Assembly: GCA_039804105.1 (NCBI GenBank)
Contig: JBDRZU010000002.1
Coordinates: 128,001 to 192,000, forward strand
Direction of reading: 5' to 3'
Length of the DNA: 64,000 bases
Source: a candidate division WOR-3 bacterium
GTDB taxonomy: Bacteria > Hydrothermota > 32-111
The position numbers were made by a program. This document shows, piece after piece, positions 24,601-27,600 of this stretch (positions are counted from its first letter, which is position 1; each line of letters begins with the position of its first letter).

Positions 24601-27600
24601 GGAACAGCAATTCTGAGTATTGCAACAATCTTTTTAAAATCATCGTTTGTTATTTCAACTGGAGGATGTTCTGAAAGTGGTGCACCAAGTGCGGGTTCAA
24701 TTCGTGGAAAGGATATAGTGTGCGGGCCTACACCAAAAACTTTTTCAAGATGTTCAGCATGTTGAATTAAAGCCATCACCTCAAACCTGTAATCATAAAG
24801 TCCAAACAACACTCCCATAGCAACATCATCTATTCCCGCTTCCTGTGCCCTGTCAAGAGCATATAATCTGTAAAGATAATCTCTCTTTTTTCCACCTAAA
24901 TGAACCTTTTCATATGTTTTACGATGATATGTTTCCTGAAAACATTGATATGTTCCAATACCTGAACTCTTCAAAATTTTAAAATCCTCAACATCCATAG
25001 GAGCAACATTAACATTTATTCTTCTGATCTCTCCATTTTTTGATTTAACGGAGTAAGCTGCAAGGATTGTATCTTTTATCCAATCAGCTTTAAATTGTGG
25101 ATGTTCACCATAAACCATCAAAATCCTTTTATGACCTTCATCTTCAAGTATTTTTACCTCTTCTTTAATTTCATCTATCGTTAATGTTCTTCTGTTCAAA
25201 TCTTTATTATCTGCCCTAAAACCACAATATGCACAGATGTTACCACAAACATTTGTCACATAGAGAGGAGCGAAAATCACAAGACGGTTTCCATAAATAT
25301 CCTCTTTTATTTTTAAAGCGAGAGAAAACATCTTTTCTTTCAACTCTTCATCATCGTTCTGTAAGAGAACATAAACATCTTCAACTGAAAGTCCTTTTTT
25401 CTCTTCACCTTTTTTTAAAACTTCAAGAACCTCATTTCTTGAAGGTTTTCTATTTTCTTTTATCAAACGATCAAGATATTCCTGATCTATAAAATCTTTT
25501 AGCTGTTCCATTTTTTCTCCTTTTTTATCAAAGTTGATGAAACTTTTACACCTTTCAACCTTCCAAGTTTACCGGTCATTGCTCCAATATCATCATTTGT
25601 TCCTTCAACTATAAGCGATATCGCACAAAAATTTTCTCCAATGTTTGGGATACCCATCCTTCCTCTGATTATATAACCATAATCGGTTAATATCTGGTTT
25701 ACATTATGGGATTGTTCCAACCGGTTTTCAATAATAATACCTATTACCCCAATCCTCAAATCATCTTTTTTGTTTTCTTCCATTTTTTCTCCTCGGACTC
25801 AATTTTTCTCGTCCTCAGTATTTTTTAGATTCCTCGGTTTTTGGAATTATCCATCACCTCAGATATTATTATTTTAACTAAAAAAATCTATCTGTCAATT
25901 CTAAAATGTATTATCACTTTCATCAATACTTTTTTTTGCAATCTCTATAAGAACTCCTAAATATATTATTAGAAAAACAAACACTATTTCACCAAAAATC
26001 AAATTCAAAGATACAATAAAGTTGTAAATAAAATGCAAAAATATTGGTATAATCAAAGCTAACAATATATATAATCTATAAATTATTTCTTTACCGTGAA
26101 AAAATTTTGCTTTCATAAAAAAATAACCCATAACTGTTCCAAACAAAGTATGGGCTGGAATCGCAGTAAAAGGCCTTGTGACTGCTACGACCATTCCATA
26201 ACTGATTACATAAAAAATATTTTCCAAAAAAGCAAAGCCGAGAGAAATTAGAACAGAATAAAATATGGCATCAAAAGGTTCATCAAAGTTTTTATTTCTG
26301 TATATAAAAAAGAGAAAAGTTAAAAACTTTAAACTTTCCTCAACAATACCGCCATTCAAACCTGCCCGATAGACCTGTTTGATCTGAAAAACTTCAAAAA
26401 CCTCAGAAAACATTGATTCTATAATAATAGCAGGAAAAACAAGAAAAATTCCAAAAACAAAAGAAAAAATGATCATACTCAACGGTTCTTTATTTTTTCT
26501 GTCTCTTAAATAGAAATATCTTACCAAAACAATAAAAGGAAGAACAGAAAGAATAATTTTAAGAACCATTATTTGGGACCTTCATAGTTTGGTGCTTCTT
26601 TTGAAATTATTACGTTATGTGGATGGTTTTCCTTAACAGAGGAGTAAGATATTTTTATGAATTCGGCATTTTTTTGTAGGTCTTTTATAGTTTTTGTACC
26701 ACAGTATCCCATTCCAGATCTTATACCACCAACAAGTTGAAATAAAACTTCTGAAACTTTCCCTTTATATGGTACCCTTGCAACTATTCCTTCAGGCACA
26801 AGTTTTTGTGCCTCTTCCTGAAAATATCTATCCTTTGAGCCAGCCATCATCGCATCTATTGAACCCATTCCTCTATAAACTTTAAACTTTCTGCCATCCA
26901 TTATAACTGTTTCTCCTGGTGCTTCATCGGTTCCAGCAAGTAATCCTCCTATCATTACAACATCAGCACCTGCTGCAAGTGCTTTTACAATATCTCCAGA
27001 ATAAACGATTCCACCATCAGCAATAAGTGGTATATTATTTGTCAAAGTTATATTTTTAACTTCCATAATTGCGGTTAACTGTGGCACACCAACACCTGCG
27101 ATAACCCTTGTGGTACATATAGAACCAGGGCCTATTCCAACCTTCACTCCATCAACCCCAGCATCGATAAGGTGTTTTGCTCCCTCTTTTGTCGCTACAT
27201 TTCCTGCAATAACATCTATTTTGAATCTTTTCTTGATCTCTTTAACTTTTAAAATCACATTTTTTGAATCACCATGAGCAGAATCTACAACGATAAGATC
27301 AACTCCAGCCTCTATAAGTTTTTCGGCTCTCTCAACGGAATCTGAAGAAACACCAATAGCAGCACCTACCCTTAACCTCCCAAATTTATCTTTGCAGGCA
27401 AGCGGATGTTCAACAAGATTTAATATATCTTTTATTGTTATCAATCCAATAAGATGGTTGCTATCGTCAACAACAGGTAATTTTTCAATTCTCTTCTCTC
27501 TGAAGATTTCTTTTGCTTTTTTTAGAGTTATTCCCTTTTTTGCTACAATAAGATCTTTAGATGTCATTCGGTCTTTTACAAGCACATTCATATTCTCTTC

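Follow-up and report, generated by a model that had tools for sequence, protein, structure and literature searches.

The leaders of [FeFe]-hydrogenase maturation genes carry a widespread, uncatalogued RNA motif that very probably acts in cis to turn those genes off. The genome-wide survey's note had proposed such a regulatory RNA, and the proposal is supported here by covariation, strand, position, and overlap with terminators or Shine-Dalgarno (SD) sequences. Taken as a whole, the reading towards which we lean is that the motif is the RNA operator of TM1266, which would respond to a cofactor-related ligand and bring about feedback repression.

The leader of the TM1266-hydG-hydF-hydE genes

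In the window (the whole 64,000-nucleotide stretch of DNA analysed), four genes lie on the minus strand in the order TM1266-hydG-hydF-hydE, all above curated cut-offs. The features of the locus are:

25871-25898, minus strand: sigma-70-type promoter, predicted by consensus (11 of 12 matches); TTGACA (25898-25893), 16 nt, TAAAAT (25876-25871)
25831-25863, minus strand: motif copy 1, 33 nt, 3-bp central stem GGU/ACC; model E 4e-5, a training row
25819-25830, minus strand: A-rich single-stranded linker separating the two motif copies, from sequence and fold
25791-25818, minus strand: motif copy 2, 28 nt, 4-bp central stem GGAC/GUCC; most of the SD lies in its 3' strand
25789-25794, minus strand: SD sequence GAGGAG of the TM1266-family gene
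25499-25783, minus strand: TM1266-family protein, 94 aa, NikR-C/ACT-like fold, no DNA-binding domain; proposed RNA-binding repressor
24114-25511, minus strand: hydG, above the TIGR03955 cut-off
22869-24104, minus strand: hydF, above the TIGR03918 cut-off
21847-22872, minus strand: hydE, above the TIGR03956 cut-off

Judging from the promoter position, transcription is predicted to start near 25864, which gives a leader of ~81 nt—the length claimed in the survey's note—with motif copy 1 at the extreme 5' end of the predicted transcript. The hairpin length of 34 nt given there includes flanks; the copies measure 33 and 28 nt. The two tandem hairpins themselves are borne out by folding: each contains two 2x2 purine internal loops, and the 83-nt leader stretch has a folding z of -3.2 (equal stability in 1 of 200 shuffles). 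The second copy does, as described, cover the SD. GAGGAG (25794-25789), 5 nt from the ATG (25783), overlaps the 3' strand of hairpin 2, and its two central G residues form pairs in the predicted ensemble, with probabilities of 0.07 and 0.12 of being unpaired. The same copies are again the two best model matches in the window's genome (both are training rows; the next match has E 0.33). Four direct repeats of CYGA-N3-4-RAGG lie downstream of the promoter, and the start of hydG overlaps the end of the TM1266 gene, an arrangement that suggests translational coupling.

Architecture, spread and OFF geometry of the motif

The motif is a two-fold symmetric hairpin of ~28 nt in which both strands read CU-G(A/C)-N3-4-RA-GG. 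In each copy a 3-4 bp stem is flanked by two identical modules in head-to-head orientation, each made up of C-G, U.G and a tandem G.A/A.R loop. In alignments the internal loops are symmetric (2x2, sometimes 3x2) and form an inverted pair; the loops are free, with no conserved junction, the terminal loop varies in length and sequence, and the spacing between half-sites ranges from 3 to 22 nt. The central stem is free in sequence and keeps its pairing, with strong covariation. Among distinct leader matches to a pairing-free pattern, the central stem is paired at 3 or 4 of 4 positions in 33 of 34, versus only 21 of 109 matches to a similar pairing-free pattern in a viral-contig control. Two-sided changes occupy 65 cells of the alignment against 20 in shuffles (0 of 500 as high), while the number of pairs showing such a change in the same alignment (seven) was equalled in 45 of 500 shuffles. 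RNAalifold recovers the same fold unaided. A second upstream module is present in 21 of 53 leaders, against 4 on the reverse strand, and motif copies also occur between hydE and hydG (L341, E 7e-6; weaker at L356, L358 and L338). The marks of a cis-regulatory RNA—compensatory base-pair changes, and a place on the coding strand in the 5' leaders of functionally related genes—are thus both present. Rfam 15 gave no match on the motif at E<=10 in window positions 25400-26200, and over 14 loci only a T-box and a tRNA-Sec, both elsewhere; the earlier statement that Rfam has no match is confirmed to that extent.

Spread beyond the window's lineage, also claimed earlier, was reproduced independently in two ways. 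Outside the window's phylum, 37 of 76 upstream regions match a descriptor composed after these sequences had been seen; the reverse strand gives 0 and shuffles 0.4. A model trained on the window's phylum only gave 17 matches at E<=0.1 in 17 of the 76 outside loci (762 kb), all of them on the coding strand and in leaders. Variants escape the model, which picked up 3 of 80 loci, whereas a widened descriptor picked up 19 of 36 leaders; motif negatives in TM1266-free genomes may therefore also be misses. Genome-wide model searches were lossy, with 46 of ~1,000 candidates scored per genome and the window's own copies missed, so no genome-wide absence is used as evidence. Genome-wide matches away from TM1266 overlapped ORFs in 14 of 14 cases examined; one strong match (E 3.5e-5) falls within a coding gene in a genome that has no TM1266 and no hydG, and hence single matches can be chance. 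Of nine genomes searched in which TM1266 stands alone (9 of 10 such loci; L044 excluded), four (G153, G154, G156 and G158) gave weak matches only, at unrelated genes. In viral contigs a single-protein query found no relative of TM1266; of their 119 pattern loci, those inspected by eye were mostly coding or simple repeats.

The layout of the leaders indicates the direction of control. An intrinsic terminator usually follows the motif, as the survey's note had it: one lies within 140 nt downstream of 45 of 53 motifs, versus 2 upstream and 1 shuffled. The motif 3' end pairs with the 5' arm of its own terminator at a mean of -10.3 kcal/mol (permuted, -8.6 +/- 0.27; 0 of 500), a modest effect in that 54% of cross pairs also reach -8 kcal/mol. 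Where no terminator was called, 11 of 17 motifs overlap an SD by eye. The 3' strand of the motif doubles as SD in the window and in copies directly upstream of hydG, and elsewhere, in most copies, is one half of an antiterminator. The closed hairpin would therefore turn the genes off, and the overlap with terminator/antiterminator or SD expected of a protein-dependent attenuator is in place.

TM1266, the regulated genes and possible cofactor salvage

The window protein falls well within the TM1266 family (TIGR03959, 96.2 bits against a cut-off of 60.8; PF21699, 95.1 against 27). PDB 2NZC ('uncharacterized protein', TM1266) was matched at E 1.6e-11 by sequence and 1.9e-9 by structure; it contains four chains of NikR-C/ACT fold, and TM1266 has had a structure since 2006 without an assigned function. 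Neither the N-terminal ribbon-helix-helix nor the His/Cys nickel site of NikR is found in TM1266. In 10 proteins a TM1266 domain is fused to the C-terminus of a FecE-type ABC ATPase, paralleled by the regulatory domain of MetN. N29 and GRMGIP are kept in 10 of 10 of these fused domains, and R10, D64, G71 and G74 are mostly lost, a pattern from which one set of TM1266 residues may bind ligand and another RNA. Most long TM1266 fusions seem to be read-through from adjacent genes; of all the fusions, the recurrent ABC-ATPase one alone is used here.

At E<=0.1 the motif is found at 35 of 60 hydG regions in TM1266-encoding genomes versus 1 of 29 in TM1266-free genomes, in counts that include kin, are not independent, and come from a model that misses variants. 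The co-occurrence with a dedicated regulator gene that marks an attenuator is thus seen, and the independence of any one protein gene that marks a riboswitch is not. Among TM1266-positive genomes, the figures are 21 of 40 hydG regions in the class of G157 (40 of 57 fetched) and 14 of 20 in the phylum of G199 (20 of 51 fetched); among TM1266-negative ones they are 1 of 7, 0 of 14 and, in the window's phylum, 0 of 8. The lone TM1266-free exception, G278, is also without a group A hydrogenase, and its assembly may be incomplete. In several TM1266-free genomes hydG lies within a long operon, and in the window's phylum six of the eight show no hydF near hydG; these six may represent another system. 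The class of G155 has no discriminating power, with 38 of 40 genomes carrying TM1266 above the cut-off.

The survey's note had tied the motif to TM1266-family genes, which holds for co-occurrence in a genome and not for position: the motif follows the maturation genes. Where TM1266 stands apart, there is usually no motif there while hydG has one (17 of 22; further loci with TM1266 apart from a motif-bearing hydG are L051, L057, L074, L090, L091 and L102), and where TM1266 is transcribed separately the motif is at hydG, hydE, hydF or aspA instead. As a refinement, then, the motif goes with the genes under control and not with the gene for TM1266, and TM1266 behaves as a trans factor. Clostridial loci reached E<=0.1 in only 4 of 18 cases with TM1266 adjoining hydG, and in 4 of 12 TM1266-positive, hydG-negative cases.

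The regulon reaches beyond maturation, comprising hydG/E/F, aspA and several transporters (NMT1/THI5-like binding protein, ECF S component, TonB receptor, FecCD-type ABC). Nine sampled clostridial genomes have hydrogenase and TM1266 but yielded no HydE/F/G; in all nine a vitamin-type transporter lies downstream of TM1266 or of the motif, suggesting cofactor salvage. Among the sampled clostridial hydrogenase-positive genomes without hydG, 20 of 25 are also without hydE and hydF. The linked binding-protein family occurs in 10 of the 25, versus 6 of 62 with hydG. In one set of five genomes, four gave no model match at E<=0.02, though three of these carry TM1266-transporter operons, and two of those three leaders show, by eye, a one-module hairpin and a terminator. 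For the linked binding protein (one structural-genomics match, 3HN0) and the ECF protein, no solved structure with a ligand was found. One HydG-less operon type encodes a FecCD importer with a fused TM1266 domain, nitrogenase-like proteins, HydE and HydF. We tentatively propose, at rather less than an even chance, that TM1266 and the RNA sense the diiron cofactor or an Fe-CO-CN precursor, that many anaerobes with [FeFe]-hydrogenases and no HydE/F/G import the precursor like a vitamin, and that the HydG-less operon finishes a part-made precursor; the precursor would come from neighbours, through NMT1-like ABC, ECF, TonB-dependent or FecCD-type importers. Most [FeFe]-hydrogenase-encoding archaea and several eukaryotes are without maturases according to Greening and colleagues (PMC11216029), who infer an alternative maturation pathway for such carriers. 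No mention of HydE or HydF was found in the accessible part of PMC13474568. Synthetic cofactor in the medium is described in PMC8159234 as activating hydrogenase inside E. coli, so uptake-based maturation is chemically workable.

A proposed mechanism, its rivals and related systems

The reading towards which we lean has parts of differing strength: TM1266 probably binds the hairpin, as the comparative genomics suggests, and the odds are about even between a precursor of the H-cluster and some other ligand, be it iron or a different metabolite. A ligand-loaded TM1266 dimer or tetramer, itself two-fold symmetric, would bind the symmetric hairpin, and two tandem copies could engage two faces of one tetramer. 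The ligand would report cofactor supply, and would most likely be the diiron [2Fe] H-cluster precursor, or else an Fe-CO-CN intermediate. When it is plentiful, the hairpin would be held shut and the genes off; in the window, translation of TM1266 would be blocked and, via coupling, that of hydG-F-E. The outcome would be a feedback loop limiting a costly, CO/CN-producing cofactor synthesis.

The survey's note had left open a riboswitch or a TM1266 site, and we favour the protein site because of the co-occurrence with TM1266 and the two-fold symmetry. On a riboswitch reading, a metabolite or ion would be bound by the hairpin or tandem pair itself, and TM1266, as a cofactor carrier or a regulator of transport, would simply come and go with the system. 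Such a reading would account for the typical layout (transcript 5' end, terminator/antiterminator or SD overlap, a regulon of biosynthesis and transport), the second upstream module, and the clear copy at L309, in a genome where TM1266 was not found. It is nevertheless distinctly unlikely given the scarcity of the motif at hydG regions without TM1266, the frequent place of TM1266 outside the regulated unit (which fits a regulator better than a pathway member), and the poor fit that an anionic diiron ligand would presumably be for so small an RNA with free loops. TM1266 might instead bind the RNA in response to another signal—iron, an amino acid, lipoate or an ammonia source—that the linked transporters import. 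The regulon's aspA, FecCD/FecB-type and TonB-dependent transporters, of families usually tied to iron chelates, point that way, as do the 9 of 17 linked binding-protein members without hydrogenase context within 1.5 kb and the six in genomes with hydG. Yet raw material is most needed by cofactor makers, and the binding-protein family is concentrated in hydG-free genomes; the consistent linkage of transporters to TM1266 or the motif in maturase-free genomes, and the loss from TM1266 of NikR's His/Cys metal ligands, also make such a signal unlikely, if worth keeping in view.

The position of many motif copies right on the hydG start would suit a feedback repressor among the proteins of the pathway (HydF, HydG or apo-hydrogenase), and HydF, a dimeric GTPase, has RNA-binding relatives in its protein family. 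This is very improbable: the motif persists at nine loci whose genomes yielded no hydE, hydF or hydG (L345, L348, L351, L352, L504, L063, L076, L055 and L105) and was not found in most genomes with hydG but no TM1266, so that only the hydrogenase itself would still qualify. Least credible is a DNA operator of direct CYGA-N3-4-RAGG repeats read by a transcription factor, even with four such repeats after the window promoter and a resemblance of TM1266 to the NikR metal-binding domain. The half-sites covary so as to keep base pairs and differ widely in spacing. Every match falls on the coding strand, copies occur between genes that are transcribed together, and no DNA-binding domain is present in TM1266.

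We found nothing in the literature searched that describes the motif or what TM1266 does, proposes an RNA target for TM1266, or accounts for the regulation of H-cluster synthesis; the supplements of PMC11109978, PMC5737381 and PMC8040213 could hold the motif under another name. The accessible parts of PMC8632094 and PMC11109978 do not describe it, and neither the PMC6429828 supplements nor a term search of PMC12578642 gave a match. Table rows in PMC8040213 (Fremin and Bhatt 2021) list three candidate structured RNAs of 42-44 nt within 5 kb of HydG domains (HMP2_12891, HMP2_1424, HMP2_15789), one of them also near hyd_TM1266; unlike the motif, each is confined in those rows to one narrow lineage, and the accessible text of the paper does not discuss them; they may be the motif, its terminator or something else. 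With one 28-nt RNA and one protein of 83-94 aa, both TM1266 function and H-cluster regulation become open to direct test, and the TM1266-linked transporters are candidate importers for hydrogenases without maturases. If true, this bears on H2 cycling in gut, rumen and digester, and on engineered hydrogenase expression.

Several known elements resemble parts of the system. Kink-turns join a 3-nt bulge to tandem G.A pairs; the motif shares with kink-turns and box C/D RNA a CUGA followed by tandem G.A pairs stacked on a U.G/C-G helix, and differs in having no 3-nt bulge and symmetric loops as an inverted pair, so that it is not a kink-turn. ANTAR target RNAs, ON switches of two hairpins with conserved terminal loops, were rejected as a match, since the motif's terminal loop is free and its geometry is OFF. 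TM1266 has the fold of the NikR C-terminal domain, unlike NikR lacks the ribbon-helix-helix domain and nickel site, and we know of no ACT/NikR-C protein that binds RNA. TPP riboswitch regulons include ThiXYZ/NMT1-THI5-type and ECF transporters, and cobalamin regulons BtuBCD. As there, biosynthesis and salvage-type transporters of the same classes stand under one OFF element; unlike those riboswitches, the motif is far smaller than their aptamers and depends on a protein gene. The closest parallels are PyrR (pyr operon), HutP (hut) and TRAP (trp), small oligomeric ligand-sensing proteins acting through protein-dependent attenuators or translational operators. The proposed system likewise pairs a ligand-sensing oligomer with a leader RNA overlapping an antiterminator or SD; like PyrR and TRAP it would be an OFF switch, and like hutP the TM1266 gene may stand upstream of the leader. 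It departs from all three in an RNA with no Rfam match whose two-fold symmetric duplex carries tandem G.A loops in place of triplet repeats or a conserved terminal loop, in a protein of NikR-C/ACT fold, and in serving a metallocofactor pathway.

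The tandem hairpin motif and its switch geometry

The tandem motif occupies a minus-strand leader, flanked by a gene of the PrsW family on one side and, on the other, by the 94-aa TM1266-family gene that heads hydG, hydF and hydE. Its features are:

25898-25871, minus strand: near-consensus promoter (consensus match; predicted start near 25864)
25863-25831, minus strand: hairpin 1, predicted fold with two purine internal loops
25818-25791, minus strand: hairpin 2, predicted fold with two purine internal loops; its 3' strand holds the Shine-Dalgarno sequence (SD) of the TM1266 gene

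The two hairpins (leader folding z = -3.2) and the covered SD agree with the genome-wide survey's note, as does the absence of any Rfam family matching the leader or motif. No terminator was found in this leader, and an [FeFe]-hydrogenase is encoded elsewhere in the genome. Judged by eye, an ORF at 14797-16083 of the window contains a stretch resembling HExxH and, at its C-terminus, a VWA-like DVSGS motif.

Across TM1266-gene leaders from the window's phylum and 80 named genomes, both strands of the motif read CU-G(A/C)-N3-4-RA-GG; the hairpin is therefore two-fold symmetric. The basal C-G does not vary among 81 aligned copies; conservation is 92–99% for the U.G wobbles and for the A of each RA, and no particular sequence is kept in the central stem or terminal loop. 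The spread across many anaerobic lineages that the survey had reported was borne out: a descriptor—composed after inspection of the leaders concerned—matches 37/76 regions outside the phylum, against 0 on the reverse strand and 0.4 in shuffles, and in a blind test model R1, built solely from sequences of the window's phylum, gave 17 matches at E<=0.1 in these 76 loci, all in leaders and on the coding strand.

Base pairing indicates that the motif acts as an RNA element. The central four positions form 3 or 4 pairs in 33/34 leader matches to a pattern that imposes no pairing, versus 21/109 matches in a viral-contig control, and RNAalifold recovers an identical fold. Two-sided changes occur in 7/10 base pairs. 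The covariation claimed earlier stands by cell count (65 versus 20 in shuffles; 0/500 as high), although the number of changed pairs, taken alone, was equalled by 45/500 shuffles.

As the survey had proposed, an intrinsic terminator usually follows: it lies downstream of 72/89 distinct copies and, in a controlled subset, after 45/53 motifs, compared with 2 upstream of the motif and 1 in shuffled sequences. The terminator's CCUU-type 5' arm pairs with the AAGG conserved at the motif's 3' end (own pairs -10.3 kcal/mol, permuted -8.6 +/- 0.27; 0/500 permutations as low), the margin being narrow because this pairing is itself conserved. Seventeen copies lack a called terminator; by eye, 11 of them cover an SD, usually the one of hydG. 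Three of the seventeen do have a terminator that the scanner missed. Since the motif's 3' strand either pairs with a terminator arm or overlaps an SD, the closed hairpin is predicted to be the OFF state in both cases. In 21/53 leaders (4 on the reverse strand) the motif is preceded by a second module, frequently of looser form, and thus the tandem form is common.

Gene context and dependence on TM1266

Where TM1266 leads the maturation operon, the motif lies upstream of it; a TM1266 gene transcribed from a promoter of its own is instead followed by the motif, which then precedes hydG (loci L057, L074, L090, L102, L104). In a divergent TM1266/hydG pair the motif stands on the side of hydG (L051); it also occurs before hydG where hydG precedes TM1266 (L091), and between hydE and hydG. 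For stand-alone TM1266, genome-wide searches covered the genomes of 9/10 loci: in five, the best match (E<0.003) precedes hydG, hydF, an aspA-like gene (by eye) or an ABC permease, and four gave only weak, unrelated matches. Genome G199 carries two tandem-motif leaders (L048, L355), one before TM1266 and a TonB-dependent receptor, the other before hydG. In one family of the window's phylum, a tandem pair of TM1266-like genes follows hydA, with the motif between them (L262:4514-5086, L263:5239-5761).

Motif occurrence was compared in (i) 100 genomes of Clostridia, the class of G157 (57 with TM1266 and hydG, 7 hydG only, 12 TM1266 only), (ii) 151 genomes of the phylum of G199 (51/51 TM1266-positive genomes have hydG; 14 hydG only), and (iii) 150 genomes of the window's phylum (8 hydG only). 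HydG regions were tested from 40/57 and 20/51 TM1266-positive genomes of the first two groups. At E<=0.1, the later model R3 matched clostridial regions in 17/22 cases with TM1266 elsewhere and 4/18 with TM1266 adjacent, and 14/20 regions in the phylum of G199; without TM1266 it matched 1/7, 0/14 and 0/8 in groups (i), (ii) and (iii), respectively, although these counts include kin and so are not independent, R3 overlooks motif variants, and part of the TM1266-free hydG genes sit deep in operons or belong to other systems. An independent descriptor shows the same trend (26/60 with TM1266, 1/29 without). The lone exception, G278, has a clear motif copy; neither TM1266 nor a group A hydrogenase was found in its assembly. 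In six genomes of the window's phylum (L252-L257), hydG neighbours a long hydE-like gene, and neither hydF nor TM1266 is close by; this may be a different radical-SAM system.

Transporters and operons without hydG

The genes preceded by the motif or by TM1266 are not limited to hydG, hydE, hydF and aspA: they include an NMT1/THI5-like ABC system, an ECF S component and a TonB receptor. A group A hydrogenase is present in each of the 12 clostridial genomes that have TM1266 but not hydG; hydE and hydF were also not found in nine, absences read as 'not found' only, because the genomes are mostly metagenome-assembled. In eight of these nine, TM1266 directly precedes a transporter gene: an ABC binding protein in six (three divergent) and an ECF-like protein, assigned by BLAST to Pfam-positive relatives, in two. 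The model detected the motif in four of these eight operons; in the ninth genome (G240), a genome-wide match (E 0.008) directly precedes the same ECF family. The binding-protein family occurs in 10/25 hydrogenase-positive genomes without hydG, versus 6/62 with hydG and 1/13 without group A hydrogenase. Of the family's 17 members, 8 are next to TM1266, the motif or hydA and 9 are not. Five more genomes combine motif and transporter and lack all three maturases (hydrogenase in four); G199, G304 and L102 keep both transporter and maturases. By analogy, this is how a vitamin regulon looks: its members would make the cofactor or import it, and the putative salvage transporters give a testable clue to the activation of hydrogenases in genomes without maturases.

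In 10 proteins, the TM1266 domain forms the C-terminal part of a FecE-type ABC ATPase. In metagenomes, loci encoding the fused ATPase share a conserved operon, TM1266-fecCD-fecE-hydE-nifH/D/K-like-fecB-hydF (L422-L499; also L349, L501-L503), in which FecE is often the fused form; hydG was found in none of the 42 loci that are at least 7 kb long. A descriptor broadened once the operon's leaders had been inspected places a motif variant at the head of 19/36 of them, with none antisense and none in shuffles; R3 matched 3/80 loci. G260 and G295, where hydE and hydF but not hydG were found, have the nitrogenase-like genes of this operon. We found no description of this operon in the literature.

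Three further variants were observed: (i) hypD/hypE and hypE/hypC, for [NiFe]-hydrogenase maturation, in operons with TM1266 and hydF (L349:6461-8514, L072:6318-7590), a possible alternative cyanide source; (ii) recurrent small ORFs (84-114 aa; no Pfam or NCBIfam match) directly 3' of hydG (L090:7984-8301, L104:4623-4964, L051:3995-4246, L073:7707-8030, L355:9502-9789); and (iii) asparaginase or cysteine desulfurase in aspA's usual place (L350:6122-7126, L070:1763-2974).

TM1266 as the candidate regulator

TM1266 adopts a NikR-C/ACT fold like that in PDB 2NZC (four chains); it has neither a DNA-binding domain nor nickel ligands. R10, N29, GRMG-P, G71, K72 and G74 are conserved at 90–100% in 136 members. 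Since the ATPase fusions keep N29 and GRMGIP and mostly lose G71, G74 and D64 (each retained in 2/10) and R10 (1/10), we infer a ligand pocket at N29/GRMGIP, common to a transport-inhibiting domain, and a separate face for putative RNA binding. A second, divergent TM1266-like gene of the window (47384-47611, minus strand) has a weak PF21699 match and a pair of cysteines in the loop that follows GVH; no motif match lies nearby.

The survey's note had left open a riboswitch or a TM1266 binding site; that the motif tracks TM1266 presence favours the latter and makes a riboswitch doubtful. On balance, we think it probable that TM1266 loads a cofactor-related ligand, then binds the symmetric hairpin and keeps it closed, which would terminate transcription at terminator-type leaders and block translation in the window. 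That TM1266 is the binder but answers to a signal other than such a ligand is a lesser possibility. Binding by a different protein is improbable given the same co-occurrence, and a DNA operator scarcely credible for an element with central-stem pairing and two-sided changes.

The literature compared, with two supplements and the PMC8040213 alignments outside the comparison, gave no description of the motif or of TM1266 function; PMC8040213 tabulates three unnamed 42-44 nt candidate RNAs near hydG which, by table entry, may overlap it. The motif is real, widespread and, it seems, uncharacterised. Its coding-strand leaders, pairing and terminator or SD overlap fit the cis-regulatory RNA of hydrogenase maturation first proposed, and with TM1266 it would constitute a new form of protein-dependent leader control. 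PyrR, HutP and TRAP exert protein-dependent attenuation; although the motif matches none of their sites, the leader control proposed for TM1266 resembles theirs.
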